Part shown: in pieces, positions 4,018 to 52,682 of the stretch
Layout: every line of letters begins with the position of its first letter
Numbering within the stretch: the first letter of the stretch is position 1
DNA from: Rickettsiales bacterium
GTDB taxonomy: Bacteria > Pseudomonadota > Alphaproteobacteria > UBA8366
Assembly: GCA_038131165.1 (NCBI GenBank)
Contig: JAYPOZ010000011.1
Span: forward strand, 4,121 to 68,120
Direction of reading: 5' to 3'
Length of the DNA: 64,000 nt
Translations under genes and position numbers: made by a program
The notes under the pieces: generated by a model
Database searches by the model: none
What the model was told of the DNA's origin: nothing
The model's input: the letters and a program-made list of their open reading frames with translations, nothing else

Positions 4018-5196
4018 TCAGGCGGAAGACGGCCGTAACGCGCCCAGCGCGTCGGCCAGTCGCGCGAAATCGTCCTCCTCGCAGTAGACCTGAGCGGCCA
4101 GTCTGGCCCAAAGTCTTTCCCCAAAGGGGATGATCGGTACTTCGATGCGGTGCTCGAACAGCAATGCGTCGCGCACCGCGTCGGCGGTCTCCCGTGTGGG
4201 GGAGAATCCGTCCGGCAACGGCGCCAGCGCCATGGCAGCCGTTTGGCGGTGCGCCGGGGAATAATCCGAACCGAACCGGTCGGCGAGGACGGCCGCGCCC
4301 TGCAAGACGGTGGCGTGGTTGTAGTCGCGCACGCTCTCGACGCCGAGCTTTGCCATGAAGCGGGCGGCATCGGGGAAACATAGATAGGAAGTGAAGTCGC
4401 GGGTGCCGGTCCAGTCGAACTCGGCGGTAAACCCTTCGTCGAGGCGCCAGGAAATCGAGGCCGGGTGAAGGGATGCTTGAGCCTCCGCGCTGGCCCAAAG
4501 GAGGCCGCAACCGCGCGGCGCGAAGAACCATTTGTGCAGATTGGCGGCATACCAGTCGCAGCCGAGTGAGGGAATATCGAGAGGGAGCGTTCCGGGGGCG
4601 TGCGCGCCGTCGACCAGAACCTGCGTCCCGTTGGCGCGGCAAAGCGCTACGATTTCGGCCAAGGGCAAGACCAATGCCGTCTCCGAGGTGATGTGATCGA
4701 CGATGGCGAGCCGCGTGCGGGCCGACAAGCCTTCGGCGACGGCATCGACCACGTCCGACGCCGCCTTGAGCGGGAAGGGAACCTTCACCGTGACCAGCGT
4801 CGCGCCTGCCTGGCGGCAGGCATAGGCGGCGGCGTTGCGCACCGCGCCATAAGTGTGGTCGCTGACCAGAATTTCGTCTCCCATCTTGAGGTCGAGCGAG
4901 CGCAGCACCGCATTGATGCCGGCCGTGGCGTTCTCCGTGAAGACATAGTCGGGGCCGCGGCCGCCGAATAAATCCGCGGCGGTCTCCGCGGCCTGCCGGA
5001 GAGCCGGTATCAACTGATGGCGCATGTATCCGGCGGGTTGTGATTCGATCTGCCGCCGTAACGCCTCCTGGGCCTCCAGCACTTCGATGGGCGTCACGCC
5101 GACGGTGCCGTGGTTGAGGTAGACGATATCGGGTGCGAGCGGCCAAAGCGCCCGCACCCCATGTCCAAATTCCAACATGCCGGAGGACGGCTTCAC
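4018..5196 (-). CDS. class V PLP aminotransferase (isopenicillin-N epimerase-like)
   Basis: 392-aa ORF. Motifs YLNHGTVG, TENATAGIN and VDGAHAPG, with the PLP-lysine context ANLHKWFFAPRG. The start is uncertain: GTG at 5196 or ATG at 5178. Confidence 0.8.
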   Translation of the reverse strand: MKPSSGMLEFGHGVRALWPLAPDIVYLNHGTVGVTPIEVLEAQEALRRQIESQPAGYMRHQLIPALRQAAETAADLFGGRGPDYVFTENATAGINAVLRSLDLKMGDEILVSDHTYGAVRNAAAYACRQAGATLVTVKVPFPLKAASDVVDAVAEGLSARTRLAIVDHITSETALVLPLAEIVALCRANGTQVLVDGAHAPGTLPLDIPSLGCDWYAANLHKWFFAPRGCGLLWASAEAQASLHPASISWRLDEGFTAEFDWTGTRDFTSYLCFPDAARFMAKLGVESVRDYNHATVLQGAAVLADRFGSDYSPAHRQTAAMALAPLPDGFSPTRETADAVRDALLFEHRIEVPIIPFGERLWARLAAQVYCEEDDFARLADALGALRPSSA

Positions 5197-27841: not shown

Positions 27842-29584
27842 CTAGCGTCTCCGAAGCGCGCCGGTCGCCGCCGTGTCGACTCCGGACAGATCGTCGGTGA
27901 GCTCGACATGAAACAGGTCGCGCGCTTGTTCGCCGGTGTAATAGCCTTTCTGCACGTCGCGCAGGACAGCGCCCGGATCTCGTTCGAACGGGTCGCCGTA
28001 GCCGCCGCCGCCGGGCGTGCCGACGGCGACAATATCGCCCGGGCGGATTGGAATGTCCTGATCCTTGGAGAGGTGCAGCGGCGTGTAGGCTTCGCCGCCG
28101 CGGTAGACGGTGACGGTATTGCAGGCGCCGTCTTGGCCGCCGAGCGCGCCCTGGGGGCCGACCCGGCCGTGGTCCATGACGAAAGAGGCTTGCGCTTCGC
28201 CCCGCCGCAATTCCACGGTGTAATTGACGCCGAAACCGCCGCGGTGCTTGCCGGCGCCCCCCGAGGCTTCGCGCAGCGAATATTCGTGAAACAGAACAGG
28301 GTAGTATTGTTCGAGCACCTCGATGGGCTGGGTTTTGGAGATGCCGATCGTCGAGCAGCCATTGGTCAGGCCGTCGTGATCCGCGTTGCCGCCGTAGCCG
28401 CCGCCGCTGATCTGATACATCACGAAGGAGCGGTTTTTCTCCGGATCGAATCCGCCGAGCGCGAAATTGCCGCTGGAGCCGGCGGGCGCCGCGGTCACGA
28501 TGTCCGGCAAGGGGCCGACCAGGGCGCCGAAGACCGCCTCGGCGATGCGCTGCGAGACTTCGGCGGCGCAGCCGGAGACGGGGCGCGGATATTCCGCGTA
28601 GAGGAACGTGCCTTTCGGGTCCTTGATGTGCAGCGGATCGAACGTGCCGGCGTTGATCGGCACGTCCGGGAAGATGTGCTTCATCGCGAGATAGACCGAG
28701 GAGCGCGTGGTTGCGATCACGCTGTTCATCGGGCCCCGGCAGGGCGGGCTCGACCCCTCGAAATCGAAGTAGAGATCGCCGTCCTTTTTCTCGATCGCGA
28801 CGGCGATGCGCAGCGGCTCGTCGACCACGCCGTCGGTATCGACCCAGGCCTCGCCACGGTAGAGGCCGTCGGGAATCTGCGCGATCTTGGCCCGCATCTG
28901 TTGCGCCGCCCGGCCGCGCCATTCTCGGATCGCGCCTTTCACGACATCGGCCCCGTACCGGTCGAGCAATGCCGTCAACTGGCGCGCGCCGACCTTGAGC
29001 GCGGCGATCTGCGCCTTGATGTCGCCGATGCGCTGATCCGCGATGCGGATATTGGAGCAGATGATCGCGTAGATTTCGGGATCCAACTCGCCCCGTTTCA
29101 CCAGCTTGACCGGGGGCAAGCGTAATCCTTCCTGCTCGACTTCCGTCGCATTGGCGGAGAAACCGCCGGGGACCGCGCCGCCGATGTCCGGCCAATGGCC
29201 GGTATTGGACAGCCAGGAATAAAGCTCGCCCTTGTAATAGAAGGGCATCGCGAAGCGCACGTCCATCAGGTGAGTCCCGCCGAGATACGGGTCGTTGACG
29301 ATATAGACGTCGCCTTCCTCCGGCGCGAGGGCCTTCCCCTCCTTGATGAACTGGATCAGCGTCATGGTGGAAAACTGCATGGTGCCGACGAAGACCGGCA
29401 GGCCCAGTTCTCCCTGGGCGATCAATTCGCCGGTCTCCGCGTCGTAAATGCCGTCGGAGCGGTCGTTGGCCTCCGCGATGACCGGGGAGAAAGCGGAGCG
29501 CGAGAAGGTGAGGTCCATCTCGTCGCAGACCTGCTGCAGGCCGGCCTGGATGACGCTCAGGGTGATCGGGTCGATATCGCTCAT
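27842..29584 (-). CDS. hyuB: hydantoinase B/oxoprolinase-family subunit
   Basis: The C-terminal 580 codons of ORF 27842..30196, from ATG 29584 (ATGA overlap with hyuA). Motifs DPITLSVIQAGL, VNDPYLGGTHLMD and GGGGYGDPFERD. Confidence 0.9.
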   Translation of the reverse strand: MSDIDPITLSVIQAGLQQVCDEMDLTFSRSAFSPVIAEANDRSDGIYDAETGELIAQGELGLPVFVGTMQFSTMTLIQFIKEGKALAPEEGDVYIVNDPYLGGTHLMDVRFAMPFYYKGELYSWLSNTGHWPDIGGAVPGGFSANATEVEQEGLRLPPVKLVKRGELDPEIYAIICSNIRIADQRIGDIKAQIAALKVGARQLTALLDRYGADVVKGAIREWRGRAAQQMRAKIAQIPDGLYRGEAWVDTDGVVDEPLRIAVAIEKKDGDLYFDFEGSSPPCRGPMNSVIATTRSSVYLAMKHIFPDVPINAGTFDPLHIKDPKGTFLYAEYPRPVSGCAAEVSQRIAEAVFGALVGPLPDIVTAAPAGSSGNFALGGFDPEKNRSFVMYQISGGGYGGNADHDGLTNGCSTIGISKTQPIEVLEQYYPVLFHEYSLREASGGAGKHRGGFGVNYTVELRRGEAQASFVMDHGRVGPQGALGGQDGACNTVTVYRGGEAYTPLHLSKDQDIPIRPGDIVAVGTPGGGGYGDPFERDPGAVLRDVQKGYYTGEQARDLFHVELTDDLSGVDTAATGALRRR

Positions 29585-31641
29585 GACGCTTCGCCTATTT
29601 CGATCAAAAGATTGCCGTCGCGGTCGACCTCGACGCGGCAGCCGGGCTCGATCACGGTCGTGGTGTCCATTTGCTCGACGATGGCGGGTCCTTCGAAGGC
29701 CCCGCCGATGGGCAGGCGGTCGCGGGTATAGATCGCGGTCTCGCGCCAGCTGCCATCGAACCAGACCCGGCGCGTCCCGTCCCGTGCCGCTTCGACGGTC
29801 GCTTCGCGTGCCGATCCGTCCATGATCCGTCCGAGATCGAAGTCCGGACGGCGCCCGATGACCGAGGTCTTCAAATTGACCAGATTCGCGCGGATTTCGG
29901 GCAATGCCACTTGGAACCTTTCGAAATAGGCCGCCTCGAAAATACGCTGGATTTCCTCTCTCGGCGTGTCGAGCGCCGGTATGGGGATCGAAATCAGATG
30001 CGTCTGGCCGATAAACTGCATGTCCGCGCCGTGCAGGACGCGGATATCCTCGATCGCAATCGTTTCGGAATCGATCAGATGTTTGCCGTCTGCAATCTGT
30101 GCCGCGAGCAGGGTCTGGACTTCTTCGAAATCCACTTGGTCGAGCGGCCGATTGACGGTGCGCACGAAATCGTGTCGGACATCGGCCACGACGCAACCGA
30201 GGGCGTTGGTGATGCCGGGGCGGGTCGGAATCAGAATGCGCGGGATTCCAAGTTCCCGGGCCAGGGCGACCGCATGCAGGGGACCGGCGCCACCGAAGGC
30301 GAACAGCGTGAAGTCGCGCGGATCATGTCCTTTCGATATCGAGACAATCCGTATCGCGCCGGCCATTCGGTCGTTTGCAACCCGAATGATGGCGCCGGCC
30401 GCGGTGTCGATATCCAGCCCGAGCGGTTGCGCGATTTTGGTGTCGAAAACCGCCTGGATGGCGTCGATCGCGGGGGCGGTTTCGGTGGAGAGAAGCTTTT
30501 CGGGATTGAGGCGCCCGAGGACGAGGTTGGCGTCGGTGATCGTCGGCGCGTCTCCGCCCCGGCCATAGCAGATCGGCCCGGGCGTGGCGCCGGCGCTCTC
30601 CGGTCCCACCCGCAGGAGGCCGGCATCGGTCACCCCGGCGATTGAACCGCCGCCCGATCCGATGGTTCGCACGTCGACCATCGGCACATGGATCGGCATG
30701 GCATATTCGACATCCAGCTCGTTGCTGACCGCCGGCACCGCGTCCAGGATCAAGGCGACGTCGGTCGAGGTGCCGCCCATGTCGTAGGTGATCAGATTGT
30801 CGATGCCGGCGCGTTTCGCCGCGTGCGCCGCGGCCATGACGCCCGAAGCCGGGCCCGACATGACGGTTTTGGCGGCTTCCCGGTCGACCAGGCGGGCCGA
30901 CACCATGCCGCCGTTGCCGTTCATCACCAACAGGTCGCGGCCGAACCCTTCGGCCGTGAGCTCGTTCTGCAGCCGGTCGATGTAGCGATGCAGGATCGGG
31001 CGCACGGCGGCATTGACGGAGGCGGTGACGCCGCGCTCGTATTCCCGGTATTCGGACAGCAATTCGTGGCCGGCGGTGATGTAGTCGTTGGGCCAGATGC
31101 CGCGCAGGATTTCCGTTGTCCGCTGCTCGTGCGCGGGGTTCGCATAGGCGTGCAGATAATGGACGACGACGGATTCGCAGCCGAGGCGCAGAAGCTCGCG
31201 GGCGGCCTGCGCGACCCCGTCCTCGTCGAGCGGGATGACGACATTGCCCGCGGCGTCCATGCGTTCGGCCACCTCGAGGCGCAGATCGCGCGGGATGACG
31301 GGTTCGAAGACGCCGGACATGCCGTAGGGTTGGGGGCGCGTGCGCCGGCCCACTTCGATGACGTCGCGAAAGCCCTTCGTGGTGATCATGCCCGTCTTGG
31401 ACAATTTGCGTTCGAGCACCGCATTGGTCGTTGTCGTCGTGCCGTGAACGATGGCGCCGATGGCGGAGAGGTCGACGTCCGTCTCGCGCAGCGCCGCGAG
31501 GACGCCGAAGGCCTGGTTTTCGACGGTCGTCGGCGTTTTCACGACGCGGACACCTTCCGGCGTGACGAGCAGCAGGTCGGTAAAGGTGCCGCCGACGTCG
31601 ATTCCGGCGATGACGGAATGGTCGGATGCGGAGTGGGACAA
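29581..31641 (-). CDS. hyuA: hydantoinase A/oxoprolinase-family ATPase subunit
   Basis: 686-aa ORF with a TTG start preceded by GAGG. Motifs IAGIDVGGTFTD, TYDMGGTSTDV and FGGAGPLHA. Confidence 0.9.
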   Translation of the reverse strand: MSHSASDHSVIAGIDVGGTFTDLLLVTPEGVRVVKTPTTVENQAFGVLAALRETDVDLSAIGAIVHGTTTTTNAVLERKLSKTGMITTKGFRDVIEVGRRTRPQPYGMSGVFEPVIPRDLRLEVAERMDAAGNVVIPLDEDGVAQAARELLRLGCESVVVHYLHAYANPAHEQRTTEILRGIWPNDYITAGHELLSEYREYERGVTASVNAAVRPILHRYIDRLQNELTAEGFGRDLLVMNGNGGMVSARLVDREAAKTVMSGPASGVMAAAHAAKRAGIDNLITYDMGGTSTDVALILDAVPAVSNELDVEYAMPIHVPMVDVRTIGSGGGSIAGVTDAGLLRVGPESAGATPGPICYGRGGDAPTITDANLVLGRLNPEKLLSTETAPAIDAIQAVFDTKIAQPLGLDIDTAAGAIIRVANDRMAGAIRIVSISKGHDPRDFTLFAFGGAGPLHAVALARELGIPRILIPTRPGITNALGCVVADVRHDFVRTVNRPLDQVDFEEVQTLLAAQIADGKHLIDSETIAIEDIRVLHGADMQFIGQTHLISIPIPALDTPREEIQRIFEAAYFERFQVALPEIRANLVNLKTSVIGRRPDFDLGRIMDGSAREATVEAARDGTRRVWFDGSWRETAIYTRDRLPIGGAFEGPAIVEQMDTTTVIEPGCRVEVDRDGNLLIEIGEAS

Positions 31642-31735: not shown

Positions 31736-33334
31736 CTAAATGCCGAGGCGCCGTTCGTAGATGTCCGGCAGATCGTTTTCCAGCAGGATGACGTCGCCGG
31801 GCTCGGCGTTGTCGGCAATCCAGGCGTTGGCCTCGGCAAAGGTCTCGAACCGGCGCGTCTCCGCGCGGTCCCCGGCCGTCTCGCTGAAGGCTTTGACGAA
31901 CGGCTCGATCCGGCTGGGCGCGATGGCGAGCAGGACATCCGCGTGGTCGGCGGCTTTGGCGCCGAGCCGGGCGTGTTCCTCATCGTGCGCGGCGCCGAGT
32001 TCGACCATGCCCGGTGTGACGACGATGCGCCGGCCGCCGTCGCCGACCAGAATGTCGAGCGCTTCCAGAGCCGAGGCGAAGCCGGCGGGGTTGGAGTTAT
32101 AGGCATCGTCGACCAGAATCGAGTCGTTCGGGCCCGCCTTCACTTCGAGACGGTGCACGATCTGCGGGGTTGATTTCAATGCCAGCGCGACGGTTTCGGG
32201 GTCGGCGCCGTAGATGCATGCGGCGGCGAAGACGACCGCGATATTGCTGATCTGATGGGTGCCGAAGATCGGCACCGCGAGGTCGTGTCTGGCGCCCTGC
32301 CAGTCGACGCTCAACGTCAGCCCTTCCGATGTCTGGGCGGACGAATGGATGCGGAGCGCGCAGCCTTCCCCCGTGCCGCAGACGACCATGGCGTCGGGAT
32401 GACGGTCCGCGAACGCGCGCGCCGGCCCGAAGGCCAGGACGTCCTCGGTCACGATGACCTTGCCGCCGCGCGCCACCGCCGCTTCGGCGAGCTCGAACTT
32501 GGCGGCGGCCACGGTGTCGAGTGACTTGAACCGTTCGTAATGCGCCTTGCCGATGGCGGTGATGACCGCGTGGTCGGGCGGCGCCAGTTCGCAGAGCCGC
32601 GCGATCGAGCCCGGCCCGTAAGCGCCCATCTCGGCGATAAAGTACCGGTGCCCCGGGCGAAGCTGCTCGCGCACGATGCGGGCGATGCCCATTGGCGTGT
32701 TGACGCTGCCGGGCGTGGCCAGGCCCGTCGAGGCGGTCTCCAGCACATGGCTGAGGATATGCTTGGCGGAGGTCTTGCCGAACGACCCGGTGATCCCGAT
32801 GACCGTGGGCTCCAGGCGCTGTAGTTTCTCGTGGGCTTCGCGCCAATAGCGGCGTTGCACGAAGGCTTCCTGCGGCGCCAATGTCCACACGGCGAGCACC
32901 AGCATGAGCGGCATCGCGTGCACCGGGATCAGCCACCAGACAGGTTCCAGATAGAGCGACGCGAAGCCGAATCCGACGACGGCCGCGTAGAGAAACGCGA
33001 TGGCGAGAATGCGCTTCGCCCGAGCCGTCAGGACCAGCTTTTTCTTCGCGGTCTTCCGGGGATTGCGCTCGCGCCAGGCCGAGGACAGAAAGAGACCGCC
33101 GACGATCGCGACGGCGACCCAGCCGGTGATGCGCGGCAGGAAATAGGCGATCACCACCAGCATCAGGATGCCGAAACTGAGGCGCCGGTCGTAATTCTGC
33201 GTCTTGAAGACCCATTTCAGGAATCGGAGAGGGTCGTATTCCTCCTGCTGGAAAGCGTGCAGGTAGAGAACCAACCGGCGCCAGGCGAAGGCGAGAAACA
33301 TGATCCAGATAAAAAGCCAAAGTGGCGCGCTCAT
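31736..33334 (-). CDS. Mur-ligase-family protein (MurF-like) with an N-terminal membrane domain of about 165 aa
   Basis: 532-aa ORF. The N-terminus has 4-5 hydrophobic helices. Then come the P-loop GITGSFGKTSAKH, EMGAYGPG and the MurF-like DDAYNSNP. Its ATG overlaps the upstream hydrolase stop (ATGA). Confidence 0.8.
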   Translation of the reverse strand: MSAPLWLFIWIMFLAFAWRRLVLYLHAFQQEEYDPLRFLKWVFKTQNYDRRLSFGILMLVVIAYFLPRITGWVAVAIVGGLFLSSAWRERNPRKTAKKKLVLTARAKRILAIAFLYAAVVGFGFASLYLEPVWWLIPVHAMPLMLVLAVWTLAPQEAFVQRRYWREAHEKLQRLEPTVIGITGSFGKTSAKHILSHVLETASTGLATPGSVNTPMGIARIVREQLRPGHRYFIAEMGAYGPGSIARLCELAPPDHAVITAIGKAHYERFKSLDTVAAAKFELAEAAVARGGKVIVTEDVLAFGPARAFADRHPDAMVVCGTGEGCALRIHSSAQTSEGLTLSVDWQGARHDLAVPIFGTHQISNIAVVFAAACIYGADPETVALALKSTPQIVHRLEVKAGPNDSILVDDAYNSNPAGFASALEALDILVGDGGRRIVVTPGMVELGAAHDEEHARLGAKAADHADVLLAIAPSRIEPFVKAFSETAGDRAETRRFETFAEANAWIADNAEPGDVILLENDLPDIYERRLGI

Positions 33335-34116
33335 GTCGGCGTCTCCAACTCGTCGATAAACTGTTTCAGCTGATAGGCGGTTTGATGCCGTCCTTCGGCC
33401 AGGACGGAATAGTGGTCCAGCCCGTCCAACTGGATAAATCGGGCATCCGCTATCAGCTGGGCCAACCGTTGGCCGATCTCGGGCGGCGTCTCGGTATCCT
33501 TGCTGCCGAAGACGAGGCGCACCGGGCAGCGGATCTGCCGTGCCGCGTCCGCGAGATCCTCGTTCACCACTTTGGTGAGGATACCGCGCAGGGCGCCGGC
33601 GGCGCGGTAATCGGTGCTGCCGAACCTCTCGCGCAGGCGGTCCTTGTCGCCGAGGGGCAGGATTTTCAGAAATTTATAGAGCGCGATCTTGGAGTTTACG
33701 CGCAGTCTCGAAACCGGCGAGCGTTTGCGCTGCAGGCCTGCGGCGGCGATCAAGAACAGCGCGTCGACGCAATCGGGATGGCGCGCGGCGAGTTGCAGGC
33801 CGACGCGGCAGCCGAACGAGTGTCCGACCCAAACCCGCCGTCCGCGCGGCAGCGTCTTCAGGAAGGCGGCGCAGGCATCGGCATATTCCGCCGTGCCCCA
33901 GTCGGTGGCGGGCCGGGGCGACTCGCCGAAGCCGGGAAAATCGACGAGCATATTACAGGCGGCGTTGGTCCAGGACTCGGCGAGCGGCAGGAGCGCCGCA
34001 TGGCTTTGTCCCCAGCCGTGCGCCCAGACAATCTGCCGCCCTGCGGCCTCGTCGCCAAGCGTCCAATAGGCAATTGCCTGGCCGTCATGCTCGAATCGCC
34101 GGGAAAGTGTGGACAT
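33331..34116 (-). CDS. alpha/beta hydrolase
   Basis: ORF 33331..34350 trimmed to ATG 34116. Motifs WAHGWGQSH, the nucleophile elbow VGHSFGC and a C-terminal LDGLDHYS. Confidence 0.75.
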   Translation of the reverse strand: MSTLSRRFEHDGQAIAYWTLGDEAAGRQIVWAHGWGQSHAALLPLAESWTNAACNMLVDFPGFGESPRPATDWGTAEYADACAAFLKTLPRGRRVWVGHSFGCRVGLQLAARHPDCVDALFLIAAAGLQRKRSPVSRLRVNSKIALYKFLKILPLGDKDRLRERFGSTDYRAAGALRGILTKVVNEDLADAARQIRCPVRLVFGSKDTETPPEIGQRLAQLIADARFIQLDGLDHYSVLAEGRHQTAYQLKQFIDELETPT

Positions 34117-34340
34117 CCGGACCCGTTTCGCACAGTCTCGATGGTGGCGTCGCCGCCGTGAAATCGACGATAATCCAAGACCGCATTTAACCGAAATCGC
34201 GCTACCTTGAAAGAACCCGCCCGCCAATTTCACCAGAATGCCCTCCCATCGCCATGTTCGGGACGCGAATCCGCACGAGCGTCGGGTGCCGAACGGGCGG
34301 CGATGGGCCACGGAACAGCGAATCAGGACAGAGGATTTCC

Positions 34341-35549
34341 ATGACGGCAAAGCGCAGAGTGGCGGTCTTGTTCGGCGGACGGTCGCCGGAACACGACGTC
34401 AGCATCGTCAGCGGCCTGCAGGCGCTGGGCGCCATAGACTCGGCCGCCTACGACGCCTTTCCCGTCTATCTGTCGACCCAGGGGGACTGGTTCGTCGGCG
34501 AGGCGCTGCGCGAGCGGGGAAACTATCTGCCCGACGACAATACCCGGCGTGCACTGACAGAAGTGACCCTGGACGCGACGGCGGAGGGCGAAGGCCGGCT
34601 CATGCCCCGCAAGAGCGGATTCTTCGGGGGCGCCAAGCCGGTCGCCTTCGACGTGGCGTTGCTGGCCTTCCACGGCAATCAGGGGGAGGACGGCCAGATC
34701 CAGGGTTTGTTCGAGATGGCGGGCATCCCCTATACCGGGATGCGGACCATGGCGTCCGCCGCGCTGATGGACAAGGCGGTGACCAAGCGGCTGCTGGCGG
34801 GACAGGAGATTCCCCAGTTGGACTGCGTCGCCCTGCGGCGGCCGGACAACGGCGTGGTGCTGACCGGTGCGGCGCTGGCCGATGCGGTCGGCAACGCCAA
34901 GTTCCCGGCCTGCGTCAAGCCGTGCCACCTCGGGAGTTCCATCGGCGTCGCGAAGGTCGACGACATGGAGGCCCTGCGCGAGGTCCTGCCCGGCATTTTC
35001 CGCCTCGATCCGGTGGCGATCCTCGAGCCTTTCGTCCCCAATCTGGTGGAATACAACGTCTCCGTATCGGCCTTCGACGGCGAAATCCGCACCTCTGCGA
35101 TCGAACGGCCGAAACGGGTCTCCGAACTGCTCGACTTCAAGGAGAAGTACATGTCGGGCGGCGGCAAGAAGGGCGGCGCGAAGAGCCCCGGGACCGCGAG
35201 CGAAGGCATGCTCTCGCTGACCCGGGACATCAATCCCGAGATCGACCCCGCCCTCGAGGCGAACATCCGGAACTGGGCGGCGGCGGCGTTCCGTTCGATC
35301 GGCGGCACCGGCGCGCCCCGCATTGATTTCCTCGGCGATGCGGCGACCGGCGAGCTTTGGTTGAACGAGGTCAATCCCTGCCCCGGGTCGTTCGGTTATT
35401 TCCTGTGGGAGGCCGCCGACCCGCCGTTCCTGTTCACCGAATTGCTCACCCATTTGATCGAGGAAGCGGTGCGGGAATTCCGCAATTCGCGGCTTCCCGC
35501 CGATCCCACGCCGCGAGAGGCGCGGCTGTTCAAGCGGCCGTACGAGTAG
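34341..35549 (+). CDS. D-alanine--D-alanine ligase family ATP-grasp protein (long variant)
   Basis: ORF 34254..35549 trimmed to ATG 34341 (RBS GGACAGAGGA). Motifs RVAVLFGGRSPEHDVS, AFHGNQGEDGQIQG, KPCHLGSSIG and NEVNPCPG. There is a Gly/Lys-rich insert, YMSGGGKKGGAKSPG. Confidence 0.8.
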   Translation: MTAKRRVAVLFGGRSPEHDVSIVSGLQALGAIDSAAYDAFPVYLSTQGDWFVGEALRERGNYLPDDNTRRALTEVTLDATAEGEGRLMPRKSGFFGGAKPVAFDVALLAFHGNQGEDGQIQGLFEMAGIPYTGMRTMASAALMDKAVTKRLLAGQEIPQLDCVALRRPDNGVVLTGAALADAVGNAKFPACVKPCHLGSSIGVAKVDDMEALREVLPGIFRLDPVAILEPFVPNLVEYNVSVSAFDGEIRTSAIERPKRVSELLDFKEKYMSGGGKKGGAKSPGTASEGMLSLTRDINPEIDPALEANIRNWAAAAFRSIGGTGAPRIDFLGDAATGELWLNEVNPCPGSFGYFLWEAADPPFLFTELLTHLIEEAVREFRNSRLPADPTPREARLFKRPYE

Positions 35550-35628: not shown

Positions 35629-37707
35629 GTGAGCGAAAATAAACAGTATCGCCTCGGCGTCGATGTCGGCGGCACCTTTACCGATTTCGTCCTGTTGGAC
35701 GAAGGCTCCAGCGAAATCCATATCGCGAAATCCCTGACCACGCCGACCGACCCGTCGGTCGGCATCCTGACCGGGGTGAAAGCCTTCGACGCGGCCTGCG
35801 CCGGGCATGTGGACGCGACGCGCCGGATCGCCCATGCGACGACCCTGGTCGCGAATTCGGTGATCGAGCGCAAGGGCGCGGTGACGGCGCTGCTCGCGAC
35901 CAAGGGGTTCCGGGATATCCTGGAATTGCGCCGCCACGTCCGCGTGACGACCTACGAATTGTTCGCCGATCCGCCCGAGCCGCTGGTGCCGCGTTGGCTG
36001 CGGCTGCCGGTCGACGAGCGGGTCTTCTCGGACGGGGCCGTATTGAAGCCGGTCAACCGCGCGGATATCGAGCGCGCGGTCGAGGTGATGCGGGCCGAGG
36101 GCGTGACCTCCGTCGCGGTCGCCTACCTGCATTCCTACGTCAATCCGGCGAACGAGCGGGCGACGGCCGAAATCCTGCGTGAACTGGCCCCCGAGATCGC
36201 GGTCACGCTGTCCTCGGACGTGTTGCCGCAGATCAAGGAGTTCGAGCGCACCAGCACCACCGTGGTCAACGGCTACGTCAAACCGCTGGCGCAGCATTAT
36301 CTCGCCAATCTGGACGCCGGCCTGCAGAGCAACGGCTACAAGGCGCCCCTGCATATCATGCTCTCCAACGGCGGCCTCGGCTCGACCAAGACGGCGGGCG
36401 ATTTCCCGATCCGGCTGATCGAGTCCGGCCCGGTGGCGGGCGCCATCGTCGGCCGCCAGCTGGCGGAGTTGATGAACATCCAGGACGTGCTCTCCTTCGA
36501 CATGGGGGGCACCACGGCGAAGGCCTGCCTGATCCGCGACCAGGCGCTGCCGATCACCGACGAGCTGGAGGTCGCGCGCTCCAAGCGGTTCACCAAGTCG
36601 AGCGGCTTTCCCGTCGGCGTGCCGGCGGTCAACATGATCGAGATCGGCGCCGGCGGTGGCAGCATCGCGGCCGTCAACCAGATGGGCATCGTGCAGGTGG
36701 GTCCCGAGAGCGCCAGCGCCGATCCGGGGCCGATCTGCTACCGCCAGGGCGGCGAGCGGCCGACGGTAACGGATGCGGACCTGACGTTGGGTTATCTGAA
36801 CCCCGGCAATTTCGCCGGCGGCACGATGTCGCTCGACGATGCGGGAGCCGCCGCCGGCCTCGACCGCGATATCGGCGGGCCGCAGGGCCGCACCACCCTG
36901 CAGGCGGCCTGGACGGTGCACGACGTGATCAACGAGACCATGGCCGCCGCCGTCCGCATGCATGTGACGGAGCGCGGCGGCAATCCCGAATCCGCGACCA
37001 TGGTGGCGTTCGGCGGCGCGGGGCCGGTGCATGCCTATAACCTCGCGCGCAAGCTCCATATCCAAAAGCTGATCGTGCCGCTGCGCGCGGGCGTTTTGTC
37101 CGCACTGGGCTTGCTGGTGGCGCCGCCCGCCTACGACATGGTGCGCACCTACAAGGCGCCGATCCGCACCCTCGACGCTGCAGACATCACCGCGCAGATG
37201 GACACCATGGCGTCGGAGATCGACACGTTGCTCGACGGCATCGAGGCGTCCGGCGAGCGGCGCTTCCGGCGCGCCATGGATGTCGGCTATATCGGCCAGA
37301 GCTATCAGGTGACGGTGCCGGTCGACGGCGCCCCCGACGGCGACAGCGTGTTCGAGACCTTCGCCCGGCTCTACCGCGACAAGTACGGCTATTTCTACGA
37401 GGACGTGCCGGCGGAGATCGTCAATCTGCGGGTGCTGGGCGAGATCGCCGGCGCCGGATTGCAGCTGACCACCGTGCCCAAGGGCGACGGCGCCGCCACG
37501 CCGACGGGCGAGCGCCCGGCCTATTCGCCGTCGCGGGGCGAGATGATCCCCTTCGCCGTCTACGACCGGGAGACGCTGCGCCCCGGCATGAAGTTCGACG
37601 GGCCGGCAATTGTCGAGGAAGTGACCTCGACCACCATCGTCGACGGCGACGGCTCGGTCGAGATCGACGATTACGGCTCGCTGGTCGTGACTTTGGAAGG
37701 CGTGTGA
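35629..37707 (+). CDS. hyuA: hydantoinase A/oxoprolinase-family ATPase subunit (second copy)
   Basis: 692-aa ORF with a GTG start behind GGAGGGAA. Motifs LGVDVGGTFTD, SFDMGGTTAK and FGGAGPVHA. Confidence 0.9.
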   Translation: MSENKQYRLGVDVGGTFTDFVLLDEGSSEIHIAKSLTTPTDPSVGILTGVKAFDAACAGHVDATRRIAHATTLVANSVIERKGAVTALLATKGFRDILELRRHVRVTTYELFADPPEPLVPRWLRLPVDERVFSDGAVLKPVNRADIERAVEVMRAEGVTSVAVAYLHSYVNPANERATAEILRELAPEIAVTLSSDVLPQIKEFERTSTTVVNGYVKPLAQHYLANLDAGLQSNGYKAPLHIMLSNGGLGSTKTAGDFPIRLIESGPVAGAIVGRQLAELMNIQDVLSFDMGGTTAKACLIRDQALPITDELEVARSKRFTKSSGFPVGVPAVNMIEIGAGGGSIAAVNQMGIVQVGPESASADPGPICYRQGGERPTVTDADLTLGYLNPGNFAGGTMSLDDAGAAAGLDRDIGGPQGRTTLQAAWTVHDVINETMAAAVRMHVTERGGNPESATMVAFGGAGPVHAYNLARKLHIQKLIVPLRAGVLSALGLLVAPPAYDMVRTYKAPIRTLDAADITAQMDTMASEIDTLLDGIEASGERRFRRAMDVGYIGQSYQVTVPVDGAPDGDSVFETFARLYRDKYGYFYEDVPAEIVNLRVLGEIAGAGLQLTTVPKGDGAATPTGERPAYSPSRGEMIPFAVYDRETLRPGMKFDGPAIVEEVTSTTIVDGDGSVEIDDYGSLVVTLEGV

Positions 37708-37730
37708 GCGTGCCGACGTGCGGCGCAAAG

Positions 37731-37846
37731 CCCTCACCCTCCCACGATGCGGGCCCCTCCCTCTCCCGCGGGCGGGAGAGGGTAGAGACCGGCGACACCC
37801 AACGCGCCCCCTCTCCCGCCGGCGGGAGAGGGACCGGGGTGAGGGT
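37731..37846. repeat. REP-like composite palindrome (two GC hairpins inside an outer inverted repeat)
   Basis: CCCTCTCCCGCGGGCGGGAGAGGG (37759-37782) and CCCCCTCTCCCGCCGGCGGGAGAGGG (37807-37832). They are flanked by CCCTCACCC (37731) and GGGGTGAGGG (37837). Confidence 0.75.
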
Positions 37847-37881
37847 TGGGGCCGAGTTTGAGCTTGGAGGAGACTGACAAC

Positions 37882-39547
37882 ATGCCTTTACGCAATACCG
37901 AACTGCCGCTCGACGTGGTCTGGCCGCGCCTGATCGCGATCGCCGACGAGATGGCGACGACGATGTTCCGCACCGCCTTCAGCCACGACGTGGTCGAGGT
38001 GCACGACATGTCGACGGGCCTGCTCGACGACCGCGGCCATCTGATGGCGCAGACCTGGCTCGGCGCCACCGGCCATACCGGCTGCATGCCCGCCTTCGGC
38101 GCCAATCTCGTCGAGGCCTTCCCGCCGGAGACGGTGGTGCCGGGCGACGTTTTCATCTGCAACGATCCCTGGCTCTGCAACGGCCAGACGGCGGACGTCT
38201 TCATCACCACGCCGGCGTTTCACAAGGGCCGCCTGATCGGTTTTGCCGTCAATACGATCCACCATGTGGACATCGGCGGGCGCAAGGGCTCGGGCCTTTC
38301 CGAGGAGGTTTTCGAGGAGGGCCTGATCATCCCGATGCTGCGCCTCTACAAGGGCGGCGAGCCGAACGAGGAGCTGTTCGGCCTGATCCGCCGCAACGTG
38401 CGCTATTCGGAGAAGATGATCGGCGACCTCCGCGCCCAGGTGGCGACCGGCTGGGCCGGCTGCCGCGAGCTGGAGCGGCTCTGCGCCGAGTTCGGATTCG
38501 GCGATCTGCGGGAAGTCTCCGACGAGATCACGGGCCGCACGGAAGCGCATCCGCGCCGGTCTCAGCGAATTGCCGGACGGCGAATGGCGCGAAGAGATGA
38601 TGATGGACATCGACGGCATCGACGAGCCGCAACCCCTCGTCGTCAGCGTCAAGATCGAGGGCGATCAGATCTACGTCGATTTTACCGGCACCGCGCCGCA
38701 GGTGCGCCGCCCGGTCAATTGCCCGATCAATTTCTCGCGCGCCTATGTGGCGGTGCCGGTCAAGATGATCTGCGATCCCACATTGCCGAACAATCAGGGC
38801 ACCTACCGGCCGATCACGCTCACGGCGCCCGAAGGCAGCCTGCTCAATCCCACATATCCGGCGGCGTGTTTCTGGCGCCTCAGCGCCGGGATGCTGGTGG
38901 CGGAGCTGATGTTCAAGATTTTCGCGCGGATCGTGCCCGACCGGGTGCCGGCGGAATCGGGCTCGCTGCCGACCTGGCAGTTCTACGTCACCGGCAACAA
39001 GCCGGACGGCGAGGCCTATGCCCTGCACCAGCATTCCTTCGGCGGCATGGGCGGGCGGCCCGGCCGCGACGGGCTTTCCGCCGTCAGCTTCCCCTACAAC
39101 GTGCGCGACGTCTCCATCGAATGGTCGGAGCACGAGACGCCGATACTCTACCATGCCCGCGAGCTGATTGCGGATTCGGGCGGGCCGGGGACCTCGCGCG
39201 GCGGCCTGGGCCAGGAATTGATTTTCGAGGCCTACGCGCCCGGCACCGCGCCGAAGCAGCCGCTGGTCTTCTCCGGCGCCGCCGGGCGCATGCGCTTCCC
39301 GCCCCAGGGGCTTGGCGGCGGCAAGCCGGGCGCGCTCGCGCGGATCGCCGTCGACGACAAACCGATCGCCCCCTCCAGCTCGCCCGAATTCCCCTTCAAG
39401 ATCGGCGAGGTCGTGCACCTGCAATTGCCCGGCGGCGGCGGCCACGGCGACCCGGCCGGACGCGCCGCAGACGACATCGCCCGCGACGTGAAGGCGGGCT
39501 ATATCTCGGCCGAAGGCGCGAAGCGGGATTACGGGTACGAGGGGTAG
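37882..39547 (+). pseudogene. hyuB: hydantoinase B/oxoprolinase-family subunit (second copy), frameshifted near 38530-38550
   Basis: The frame of ORF 37846..39651 is HyuB-like from ATG 37882 (GGAGGAGA RBS) to ...EVSDEITGRTEA, then turns Arg-rich. HyuB similarity resumes in the next frame as RKRIRAGLSELPDGEWREEMMMDIDG (ORF 38570..39547) and runs to GGGGHGDPAGR. Confidence 0.8.
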
Positions 39548-50413: not shown

Positions 50414-51010
50414 ATGAAGAAACAGACCGCCTCCAACACCATCGGTCCGTTCTTCCATCATGTCATCACGCCGGAAGATCATGGCCGCAAGGGGATCGCC
50501 GACAATAAGCTGGCGGCGAAGAAGACCAAGGGCGAGCGTATTCGCGTCGAAGGCCGGATTCTCGATGGCGATGGCAAGCCCTTGCGTGCCGCGATGCTGG
50601 AAATATGGCAGGCCAATGCCGCGGGCCGCTACAACGCGCCGGGAGACGGCCGCAGCGAAATCAAACTCGATAAGAGTTTTACCGGGTTTGGCCGGGTATC
50701 CGCCGGCAATAAAGGCAAATTCGAATTCGAAACAATTAAGCCTGGCGCCGTTCCAAGCGGCGGGAACGCACCGCAGGCGCCGCATATCAATTTGACGCTG
50801 TTCGCGGCGGCGATCCATTCGCACCTCTTCACCCGGCTTTATTTCGCTGACGAGACAGAGGCCAACGAGATCGATCCCGTTCTGTCGTCGGTGGACGATG
50901 CGCGCCGCGGCACCCTGATTGCCCGGCGGAAAGATACCAAGAAGGGGCCCGTATATACTTTCGATGTCCGGCTAGGCGGCGACGGAGAGACGGTTTTCTT
51001 CGACGTCTAG
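50414..51010 (+). CDS. pcaG: protocatechuate 3,4-dioxygenase alpha subunit
   Basis: ORF 50360..51010 from ATG 50414, 1 nt after the pcaH stop. Motifs IGPFFH, LEIWQANAAGRY, APHINLTLFA, TRLYFADE and GDGETVFFDV. Confidence 0.9.
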   Translation: MKKQTASNTIGPFFHHVITPEDHGRKGIADNKLAAKKTKGERIRVEGRILDGDGKPLRAAMLEIWQANAAGRYNAPGDGRSEIKLDKSFTGFGRVSAGNKGKFEFETIKPGAVPSGGNAPQAPHINLTLFAAAIHSHLFTRLYFADETEANEIDPVLSSVDDARRGTLIARRKDTKKGPVYTFDVRLGGDGETVFFDV

Positions 51011-51032
51011 AGCGCCGGCTTCGGGGCGGTGC

Positions 51033-51716
51033 CTACGCCGCCCGTCCTCGTTTCTTATGTGGGCCTGTCGACCCATGTGTCAGCGCGCCCTCGAGAAAGT
51101 CCCATCTCTGCCGTAGGGCGTCGGGCGAGACCATTGCGTGATCGTCGTCGAGCCACTCGACCGGGAAGCTTTTTCCCAGGATTTCCACGGCTTCCGTCGC
51201 CGTCTCGTCGATAAAGGGGTCGTTTCGGCCGAATTGAAGAAGACACGGACATTTAATAAATTTCGATATCGTAATTATATCGAGAGGCCGCATTTCCGAT
51301 ATGCGCGCCCATTCCGCTTCGCCCGCCAGTGATTGGCGGAACTTTTGGGCGGACGGCGCGTTGCTTTCTCGGCGGTAGCGACTGATTTCCGGAATGGCGC
51401 CGACCAACGCCATGGCATCGATCGCCAATCCGCGTGCTGCCGCCCACGCCAACTGTCCGCCGCCGTTGTTGCGCCCGATCGCCGCGATGCGCGCCGCGGG
51501 GGCGTCCGCCCTGATTTTGTCGATTGTCCGGCTGACGATATCGCCTACGGCATCGAAATGCGCCCAACGGGCATCGATGGGGTGGCCGCTAAAGGGCGGC
51601 AAGGTCGGTTCCTGGACCGAAAACCCTCGTCTCAAGGCTTCAGCGGTGTCTTCGGCGAAACCGAGCGAGTCGGCACCCTGTATCAGGATCGCGTGGCGGG
51701 GATTGTTACCTGTCAT
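51033..51716 (-). CDS. alpha/beta-hydrolase-fold-like protein with a non-canonical nucleophile position
   Basis: ORF 51033..51752, with the start ambiguous (51716 or 51752). Shows a dienelactone-hydrolase-like layout. The expected GxSxG elbow reads IGRNNGG. Confidence 0.4.
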   Translation of the reverse strand: MTGNNPRHAILIQGADSLGFAEDTAEALRRGFSVQEPTLPPFSGHPIDARWAHFDAVGDIVSRTIDKIRADAPAARIAAIGRNNGGGQLAWAAARGLAIDAMALVGAIPEISRYRRESNAPSAQKFRQSLAGEAEWARISEMRPLDIITISKFIKCPCLLQFGRNDPFIDETATEAVEILGKSFPVEWLDDDHAMVSPDALRQRWDFLEGALTHGSTGPHKKRGRAA

Positions 51717-51803
51717 GAAGCTTCTATGCTCTCTTGCAAGCAATGCCGTCAATGCAGTGTCCGTCAGTCTAGAGTAAACGGGCGCTTTCAGGGAGAGGAT
51801 CAG

Positions 51804-52682
51804 ATGAAAAATCGCATGGTCGGGGATTTACAGATTTCGCGCGTGCACGAGTTGTTTCTGCGCGTGCCGACGGGGGACTTCTTTCCGGATACGACCCCGG
51901 AAGATTGGGCGCCTCACAAGGACTGGCTGATCGCCGAGAAGGCGCTGGATCCGGCGGGCGACAATATCGTGCTCCCGGTTCAGAGTTATGTCGTGCGCAC
52001 CTCGCACCATAATATCCTGATCGACACCTGCGTTGGAAACGACAAGAACCGGCCGCACCGGGAAGGCTGGCATTTGAAGAGCGACGATACCTATATGACC
52101 AGCCTCGCCGCCGCCGGGCTGAAGCCCGAAGACATCGACTATGTGATGTGTACGCACTTGCATCACGATCACGTCGGCTGGAACACCAAATTGGTGGACG
52201 GCCGTTGGGTCCCGACCTTTCCGAACGCCAAATATCTGATGTCTAAGAAAGAATTAGAAATCTTTAAAGCCCAGGAAGATCCGGCGGCATCGCTTTCCCT
52301 GATCGACAGCGTGCTGCCGGTGGTCGAGTCCGGACAAGCGGAACTGATTGCCAGCGATTATGCCCTCGACGACGAAGTCTGGTTGGAGCCGACGCCCGGC
52401 CACACGCCGGACCATTTCGCGGTGCGCCTGGCGTCCAAGGGAACCGGCGCGGTGGTCGGCGGCGATTTGATGCATTGCCCCGTGCAATGCGCTCATCCGG
52501 AATGGCGTGCCCGGCCCGATTTCGATCCGAAACAGGCTCAGGACACGCGGCGCAAATTCATGGAAAGCTATGCGGAGACCGATACGCTGGTGTGCATGAT
52601 GCACTTCCCGCTGCCGTCCTGCGGCGGTTTCAAACCTCAGGAAAAAGGCTTCCGTTTCACTTACGATACGCAGGATTGGTGA
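51804..52682 (+). CDS. MBL-fold metallo-hydrolase (lactonase-like)
   Basis: The last 292 codons of ORF 51333..52682, from ATG 51804 (GGGAGAGGA RBS). Motifs CTHLHHDHVGWN and PTPGHTPDH. Confidence 0.8.
   Translation: MKNRMVGDLQISRVHELFLRVPTGDFFPDTTPEDWAPHKDWLIAEKALDPAGDNIVLPVQSYVVRTSHHNILIDTCVGNDKNRPHREGWHLKSDDTYMTSLAAAGLKPEDIDYVMCTHLHHDHVGWNTKLVDGRWVPTFPNAKYLMSKKELEIFKAQEDPAASLSLIDSVLPVVESGQAELIASDYALDDEVWLEPTPGHTPDHFAVRLASKGTGAVVGGDLMHCPVQCAHPEWRARPDFDPKQAQDTRRKFMESYAETDTLVCMMHFPLPSCGGFKPQEKGFRFTYDTQDW

Follow-up and report, generated by a model that had tools for sequence, protein, structure and literature searches.

In textbooks, Ddl and MurF are soluble enzymes, and both are targets for antibiotics; D-cycloserine, for instance, hits Ddl. 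What is the role of a MurF-type ligase that is built into the membrane, coupled to a serine hydrolase and set beside a Ddl-type ligase of unusual form? These three genes lie together in a stretch of 64,000 nucleotides from a marine Rickettsiales bacterium (GTDB lineage Bacteria; Pseudomonadota; Alphaproteobacteria; UBA8366), which corresponds to positions 4,121 to 68,120 of contig JAYPOZ010000011.1 in NCBI GenBank assembly GCA_038131165.1 and is referred to below as the window. Its own assembly is a metagenome-assembled genome (MAG) of 253 contigs that is 95.7% complete. The trio is very probably the organism's only machinery for making and adding D-alanyl-D-alanine (D-Ala-D-Ala), having displaced the canonical murF and ddl genes of the division and cell wall (dcw) cluster. 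Its parts are as follows, with window coordinates and the evidence for each.

31736..33334 (stop codon included), minus strand: membrane-anchored MurF-type ligase of 532 aa, hereafter TM-MurF (open reading frame (ORF), Pfam, TIGR01143, solved MurF relatives, alignment A1)
32840..33334, minus strand: N-terminal membrane domain of TM-MurF, aa 1-~165, five helices (hydropathy, positive-inside loops, AlphaFold2, A1)
31781..32794, minus strand: catalytic core of TM-MurF, comprising the central ATP-binding and C-terminal domains (Pfam, PDB relatives, A1)
33331..34116, minus strand: alpha/beta-fold serine hydrolase of 261 aa (Pfam, NCBIfam, homologue alignment, AlphaFold2, fold search)
34341..35549, plus strand: Ddl-variant ATP-grasp ligase of 402 aa (Pfam, TIGR01205/PRK01966, solved DdlA-type enzymes, alignment A3)
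35151..35225, plus strand: family-specific omega-loop insertion of the Ddl variant, after K269-Y270 (PDB alignment, A3)

A genome with no other murF or ddl

Searching the window genome with the murF model returned the window gene together with MurC, MurD and MurE only, and no second murF. The dcw cluster lies in one piece on contig C4 of the assembly, where ftsI, murE, mraY, murD, ftsW, murG, murC, murB, ftsQ, ftsA and ftsZ are present. Within it, murE (with its DNPR motif) occupies 50771-52594 and the mraY frame starts at 52598, with 3 bases between them; ftsQ comes directly after murB, and penicillin-binding protein (PBP) 3, the ftsI product, is present. Because the cluster is contiguous and both murE-mraY and murB-ftsQ abut, murF and ddl are precisely absent from their usual sites rather than lost in an assembly gap. 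A search of the genome with three models, together with a hand reading of the dcw cluster, brought up no other canonical murF or ddl. The other Ddl-like gene (C183:3110-4228, minus strand, 373 aa) scores 75 bits to TIGR01205 and is a distant paralogue, and kin that possess a canonical ddl have similar genes. Its contig, C183, is 4.3 kb long and holds two large unidentified ORFs besides this paralogue.

The trio itself lies outside the dcw cluster, as an earlier reading of the window from its letters (the first-pass annotation) had observed, and model searches found no further Mur-ligase or Ddl-family match on the window's contig. That annotation had proposed a separate membrane-associated system that builds a peptide or amino-acid conjugate. 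It had added that the genes would simply be housekeeping copies if the genome lacked any other murF or ddl, and this lack is what the model searches and the dcw reading reveal. The membrane-associated, conserved three-gene module is supported, and the separate conjugate role is not. "Simply the housekeeping copies" is also too plain a description: these are housekeeping genes in a non-canonical, membrane-anchored form and not just ordinary genes that have been relocated. That the trio holds the housekeeping D-Ala-D-Ala genes is concluded from the finding that this genome has no other murF or ddl, and from the either/or pattern seen in other genomes. Gene presence and absence, together with conserved chemistry, argue strongly for this role. 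Likewise, the lack of another murF in this and most carrier genomes suggests that TM-MurF catalyses addition of D-Ala-D-Ala to uridine diphosphate (UDP)-N-acetylmuramic acid (MurNAc)-tripeptide.

Either canonical genes or the trio

Among 20 relatives, the window's genus (g1) and a second genus (g6) were compared with 12 genomes from four other genera of the family and from other families of the order. Canonical MurF occurs in all 12 of the latter (11 full length at 359-394 bits and one, G011, split over two contig ends), as does canonical Ddl, within dcw clusters, at 256-287 bits; none has the trio. Genomes of g1 and g6 have no canonical murF or ddl and carry TM-MurF, the Ddl variant and a hydrolase orthologue instead. 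Hydrolase orthologues that score >325 bits against the family profile occur only in TM-MurF genomes, compared with a best score of 113 bits in relatives with canonical MurF. Contig ends interrupt the locus in two MAGs of the window's genus.

The same arrangement recurs far outside this order. A pattern scan of species genomes yielded 39 loci in Alphaproteobacteria (Marivibrio, Croceicoccus, Devosiaceae, Maritimibacter, Pseudooceanicola and Henriciella), one gammaproteobacterium, Opitutales, Bacillales and Christensenellales. The first-pass annotation had called for a survey of neighbourhood conservation, and the trio proves to be strongly conserved: the hydrolase lies directly upstream of TM-MurF in ~34 of the 39 loci, from Proteobacteria to Clostridia. 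In Proteobacteria the Ddl variant is transcribed divergently, and in Clostridia it lies immediately downstream, on the same strand. When the ORFs around 20 loci were clustered all against all, no fourth conserved neighbour emerged, only the three genes and spurious overlapping frames.

Canonical genes are also largely missing from distant carriers. None of 12 carrier genomes, which include a complete Henriciella chromosome, Croceicoccus, Marivibrio and Christensenellales, has a match above the murF cut-off, and a weak full-length murF is found only in Maritimibacter. In an evenly drawn sample of 401 Alphaproteobacteria, TM-MurF is present in 26 genomes, which represent 21 of 308 genera. The murF model was then run on 26 carriers, namely 25 of those from the sample (the window genome having been checked already) and Maritimibacter (G028); a full-length canonical MurF is kept only by G176, G182, G028 and perhaps G063. 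Three other carriers seem to have been caught midway through displacement. An in-frame TAG makes the canonical murF of G087 a pseudogene (C246:16153-16989), while in G070 (C9:15545-16240) and G373 (C178:11780-12466) the murF match is restricted to the N-terminal half (positions 1-227) inside frames of 806-1037 aa. In Croceicoccus hydrothermalis, a 329-aa ORF between murE and mraY (L058:7159-8145, minus strand) has a MurF-like N-domain, a dead P-loop (AILGFSGDT) and no C-domain, and in Marivibrio halodurans a 248-aa ORF (L059:3419-4162, plus strand) occupies the murF site in the murE-mraY interval. These two ORFs may be decaying remnants, or they may be a retained UDP-substrate-binding subunit. 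No such ORF separates murE from mraY in the window genome, Devosiaceae or Christensenellales, where the two genes abut. This is the pattern to be expected if the trio had been acquired repeatedly and the canonical genes, now redundant, had then been lost.

TM-MurF forms at least two alphaproteobacterial subgroups. The window protein is 55% identical to that of Marivibrio; a second group, from Croceicoccus, Rhodobacterales, Devosiaceae and Henriciella, has internal identities of 44-60%, includes the gammaproteobacterial protein, and is 35-40% identical to the window protein. MraY identities across the same genomes are 52-76%. A comparison of the two sets of identities fits horizontal spread of TM-MurF. 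The family is large, with at least 2613 proteins at E <= 1e-10 among 8000 scored candidates, and named members come from Labrys, Azospirillum halopraeferens, Marivibrio, Stellaceae and Acidobacteriaceae. When representatives at 50% identity are considered, the best 150 clusters all have E < 1e-135, most are full length including the membrane domain, and Alicyclobacillaceae and Dehalococcoidia are among them. Source annotations for the family are MurF or "Mur ligase family protein".

A membrane domain in place of the UDP-binding domain

The first-pass annotation described a MurF-like ligase with a complete catalytic core (GITGSFGKTS, DDAYNSNP) preceded by about 165 residues of transmembrane helices, and the ORF, Pfam, hydropathy and AlphaFold2 results all agree with it. 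Its only Pfam matches are Mur_ligase_M (aa 181-372) and Mur_ligase_C (aa 394-518). The top NCBIfam model is TIGR01143 (murF), at 207.9 bits and under its 288.6 cut-off; none of the models for MurC, MurD, MurE and Mpl exceeds 67 bits. Only model positions 65-403 of TIGR01143 are matched, so MurF domain 1, which binds UDP, is missing from TM-MurF. In its place, residues 1-~165 contain hydrophobic segments at 5-23, 52-70, 69-87, 109-127 and 132-150, with loops rich in lysine and arginine between them. AlphaFold2 predicts helices at 3-30, 50-65, 72-88, 104-126 and 131-174 (mean predicted local distance difference test (pLDDT) score 90.8, predicted template modelling score 0.85), and the remainder of the model can be overlaid on solved structures of MurF across ~370 columns with 22-24% identity. 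A search of the membrane domain against Pfam at E up to 10 returned noise only (SieB and UbiA, E 0.06-0.3).

The core carries the P-loop GITGSFGKTS, HRYFIAEMGA, K279, DDAYNSNP and TPG, and the C-terminus reads ENDLPD where KGSR is usual. In alignment A1, which contains 27 TM-MurF sequences from three phyla, the P-loop (T182-T188), HRYFIAEMGA, K279, N413 and N415 of DDxYNxNP, and TPG are invariant. Invariance extends to the membrane domain, at F28, Q29, Y33, K97, K98, T103, R105, R108, P142 and P154. Most of these residues fall in two motifs: FQQEEY at aa 28-33 (FQQxxY in the family), at the end of helix 1, and KKKLVLTARAKR at aa 97-108 (KKxLVxTxRAxR in the family), which precedes helix 4. By the positive-inside rule, both motifs probably face the cytoplasm beside the catalytic domain. 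This predicted position of invariant motifs suggests that the membrane domain is more than an anchor, and its basic cluster is a good candidate for holding the substrate diphosphate in place of domain 1.

TM-MurF and canonical MurF (TIGR01143) thus share the ATP-binding and C-terminal domains, including the P-loop, the lysine and DDxYNxNP. TM-MurF differs in having a 165-aa five-helix domain for domain 1 and ENDLPD for KGSR, in lying outside the dcw cluster, in its coupling to a hydrolase and in scoring under the model cut-off.

A Ddl variant with a long omega-loop

The Ddl-family ATP-grasp gene lies 224 bp away on the other strand and has both Ddl domains (Pfam Dala_Dala_lig_N and Dala_Dala_lig_C); its Gly/Lys-rich insertion, of ~13-18 aa, had been noticed correctly at the first pass, along with a spacing of about 225 bp. 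It scores 215.4 bits to TIGR01205 (cut-off 245.65) and 216 to PRK01966.1-4 (cut-off 262), compared with 84-134 bits for Van-type models. Solved DdlA-type enzymes align to it end to end, apart from the omega-loop insertion, which consists of a variable Gly/Lys-rich part followed by invariant G289-M290-x-S292-x-x-R295 (GMxSxxR). The residues that serve ATP, Mg and the first D-Ala (E17, S199/S200, K269, Y270, R327, D329, E343 and N345) show no variation across alignment A3, and we take their counterparts in Escherichia coli DdlB to be E15, S150, K215, Y216, R255, D257, E270 and N272. The second-substrate loop reads PGSxGFFLWE in the Ddl-variant family versus PGFTxxSMYPKLW in solved Ddl enzymes; the usual form, PGxTxxS-L/M, presumably corresponds to Ser281/Leu282 of DdlB.

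The variant therefore shares with the long DdlA type (TIGR01205/PRK01966; PDB 7u56, 2i87 and 3i12) both ATP-grasp domains and the residues for ATP, Mg and the first D-Ala. Distinguishing features are the 13-18-aa omega-loop insertion with GMxSxxR, a loop after the PG that is 4 residues shorter, a proteobacterial tail and scores under the cut-offs. This tail, DPxPxxAxLxxR, is shared by proteobacterial Ddl variants beyond the Ddl fold; here it reads RLPADPTPREARLFKRPYE (window 35490-35549). Clostridial Ddl variants are without it and have a GAKGAKG-like tail instead. DPxPxxAxLxxR may act as a peptide to which a partner docks.

The hydrolase and the surroundings of the trio

The hydrolase is translationally coupled to TM-MurF: an ATGA overlap, in which the hydrolase TGA lies on the TM-MurF ATG, can be read directly from the sequence, as the first-pass annotation reported. 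Its start codon was placed by alignment to homologues. Pfam matches are Abhydrolase_6, Abhydrolase_1 and Hydrolase_4, and the top NCBIfam model is NF058580, the EstV family lipase of Helicobacter, at 111.9 bits (cut-off 300) over profile positions 10-227 of 230. HGW, GHSxG (S101; GHSFG here), D208 and H236 are invariant in all aligned members, and the AlphaFold2 model has a pLDDT of 94.5. Read by eye, the sequence gives no sign of a signal peptide or membrane segment. A fold search returned ~50 esterases, lipases and dehalogenases, with PlaF, a membrane phospholipase A, and ABHD6 first. A specific function was sought in this list and dropped, because the near-equal scores fail to discriminate. 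Conservation and linkage of the gene suggest that the hydrolase is an obligate, catalytically active partner; our best guess is that it is an editing or trimming esterase or peptidase that acts on the precursor at the membrane face.

One further feature separates the two transcription units.

34117..34340, no strand: divergent intergenic region of 224 bp between the hydrolase/TM-MurF operon and the Ddl-like gene (gene coordinates)

This region presumably holds both promoters, and a scan of 34117..34340 for the sigma-70 consensus found no promoter-like site. The trio is flanked by hyuA-hyuB sets of hydantoinase/oxoprolinase type, at 29581-31641 (minus strand) and 35629-39547 (plus strand). Their products match one another by eye, and the surroundings of the trio are catabolic rather than cell-wall genes. 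The ORFs of the second hyuB shift frame near 38550.

Proposed mechanism and alternatives

From the domain anatomy, conserved residues and gene linkage, and from the absence of canonical murF and ddl, we infer an enzymatic function, substrate, topology and hydrolase role as follows. The Ddl variant would make D-Ala-D-Ala in the cytoplasm. The five-helix domain, substituting for UDP-binding domain 1, would hold TM-MurF in the inner membrane, where its central and C-terminal domains would use ATP at the cytoplasmic face to ligate the dipeptide onto diphospho-MurNAc-L-Ala-D-Glu-meso-diaminopimelate. Beside MraY, FQQxxY and KKxLVxTxRAxR, as conserved aromatic and basic loops, would take over the task of gripping the substrate by its diphosphate end. 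The substrate is taken to be UDP-MurNAc-tripeptide, as for ordinary MurF, and a lipid-linked substrate is the main alternative.

Several observations weigh against this housekeeping role. Both TM-MurF and the Ddl variant fall under the curated murF and ddl model cut-offs. The loop for the second D-Ala in the window protein (PGSFGYFLWE) is 4 residues shorter than usual, has no alignable serine and occurs in no solved Ddl, so the product could differ from D-Ala-D-Ala. Nothing in a plain MurF reaction explains a hydrolase. A few genomes hold both MurF types, and the two types therefore need not be strictly equivalent. Three further MAGs of the same genus (87, 64 and 73% complete) have neither the trio nor canonical genes, which is slightly more than expected from incompleteness alone; these absences are probably assembly loss. 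Finally, the enzymatic role is predicted from genes for every member of this alphaproteobacterial group.

The conjugate system of the first-pass annotation, unrelated to the stem pentapeptide and with the real murF and ddl missed by assembly, gains some room from the 253 contigs and 95.7% completeness of the MAG, from the hydantoinase-type catabolic genes, rather than cell-wall genes, that surround the trio, and from the unexplained membrane domain and hydrolase. It is nevertheless very improbable. The dcw cluster is contiguous with murF and ddl precisely absent from their usual sites, the same absence recurs in complete or near-complete unrelated carrier genomes, some with decayed murF remnants, and the ligase is nearest to MurF by both sequence and fold (208 bits versus <=67 for MurC, MurD, MurE and Mpl). 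Another alternative is an altered terminus, which we consider improbable. The Ddl variant would make D-Ala-D-X, where X is D-Ser, D-Lac or another residue, with TM-MurF as the matched adding enzyme and the hydrolase removing competing normal termini; such a module would change the end of the stem peptide as pairs of a van ligase and murF2 do. A second-substrate loop 4 residues under that of every solved Ddl, a family-specific omega-loop insertion that ends in invariant GMxSxxR, and the position of both ligases under curated cut-offs all speak for it. The omega-loop K-Y pair is invariant, however, and the omega-loop Tyr marks D-Ala-D-Ala ligases, whereas D-Lac ligases lack it. Moreover, Van-type models score 84-134 bits, far under the 215 bits of Ddl models, and many unrelated lineages with ordinary PBPs depend on the module alone for the terminus.

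The main alternative is a lipid-level step. It is possible, though unlikely, that MraY and MurG first make tripeptide lipid I and lipid II, and that TM-MurF then adds D-Ala-D-Ala to the undecaprenyl-diphosphate-linked precursor. The five-helix domain would then bind the carrier lipid, and the lipase-like hydrolase, as an essential catalytic partner, would for example trim or edit lipid-linked intermediates. If true, the textbook order of MurF then MraY would be reversed in this lineage and in most carrier genomes examined. Complete replacement of UDP-binding domain 1 by a conserved polytopic membrane domain with invariant residues at the cytoplasmic membrane face is consistent with such a step, as are the direct adjacency of mraY to murE and the membrane lipid esterases PlaF and ABHD6 as the nearest folds to the hydrolase. 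MurT, another Mur-family ligase without a UDP domain, acts on lipid II and offers a precedent. A lipid-linked route predicts adaptation of MraY to a tripeptide substrate, and for this reason MraY was compared between 10 lineages with TM-MurF only and 53 controls, which were biased to high-scoring MraYs. The loop GQPIRxDGPxxH, ~98% conserved, reads NTPVREDVPEGH in the window genome (C4:52598-53713), ASNVREDTPEGH in Marivibrio and GQPIRDLSLEAQ in Henriciella, and these departures would speak for the lipid-level step; all three deviants have TM-MurF only. The consensus is kept in the remaining 7 of the 10 lineages, however. Against controls biased to high scorers, no MraY column is altered in most carriers (at best, W47 and L278 differ in 4 of 10 and GQPIRxDGPxxH in 3 of 10), and the ten lineages thus have no consistent MraY signature. 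A membrane anchor by itself would also fit channelling of product to MraY, or scaffold binding as in Csd5-MurF of Helicobacter pylori. The coexistence of both MurF types in some genomes likewise weighs against the proposal. The housekeeping role, with a UDP-linked substrate, remains our preferred interpretation.

Comparison with known systems

Membrane-anchored MurF is not without precedent. H. pylori MurF is reported to reside in the inner membrane and to have four transmembrane domains at its N-terminus (PMC9448923, citing Blair 2018). In Campylobacter jejuni, the alpha/beta hydrolase Cj0796c adjoins murF (Cj0795c), with ddl (Cj0798c) just upstream of Cj0796c; Cj0796c may be essential, its deletion was unobtainable, and its overexpression produced filamentous cells in ~1/10 transformants (PMC5530802). 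On these H. pylori and C. jejuni reports, Campylobacterota already provide a recorded case of a housekeeping MurF that is anchored in the membrane and has a hydrolase and ddl as neighbours. Features in common with the window trio are the N-terminal transmembrane helices (in H. pylori MurF), the hydrolase and ddl beside murF (in C. jejuni) and the housekeeping status of MurF. Four helices are reported for H. pylori MurF, compared with five predicted in TM-MurF. The top model of the window hydrolase is EstV, matched over its full length yet far under the cut-off (112 versus 300 bits). We take the H. pylori locus to comprise MurF HP0740, EstV HP0739 and DdlA HP0738. The idea that the Ddl variant is especially close to the H. 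pylori enzyme (PDB 2pvp) was considered and rejected, since at 97 bits 2pvp is no nearer than other Ddl enzymes. By architecture and gene order, the trio would belong to the H. pylori type.

Other parallels are weaker. MurT/GatD, the lipid II isoglutamine amidotransferase, pairs a ligase free of the UDP domain with a partner on a membrane-bound precursor and provides an analogy only; the window trio has no MurT-specific domain and no GatD partner, and its ligase is MurF-like by sequence. The pairing of ATP-grasp and Mur-ligase modules had also been likened at the first pass to the logic of cyanophycin synthetase. This likeness is not borne out, since the top NCBIfam and PDB hits are all MurF and Ddl, with no CphA, CapB or FolC among the matches. 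Phrase searches of the literature for membrane-anchored, alternative or paralogous MurF returned nothing relevant. The literature searched contains no account of a membrane domain conserved across the family, of strict co-inheritance of the hydrolase, of a matched Ddl variant or of displacement of the canonical genes, and it offers no explanation of what the membrane domain and the hydrolase do or what the altered Ddl loop means. The MurF/Ddl role itself is ordinary, and its form has already been glimpsed in H. pylori.

Implications

The locus indicates that a three-gene module, consisting of a membrane MurF without a nucleotide-binding domain, its own Ddl variant and an obligate hydrolase, can fully replace murF and ddl. 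Evidence for this replacement comes from precise deletion scars in the dcw cluster and from relatives within one bacterial family, which have either the canonical genes or the trio. The module is spread over many phyla and, according to the literature, also occurs in Helicobacter and Campylobacter. Working out the functions of the membrane domain, the hydrolase and the Ddl loop would show whether the D-Ala-D-Ala step can use a lipid-linked precursor, and the hydrolase could prove to be a new essential enzyme of cell-wall synthesis.

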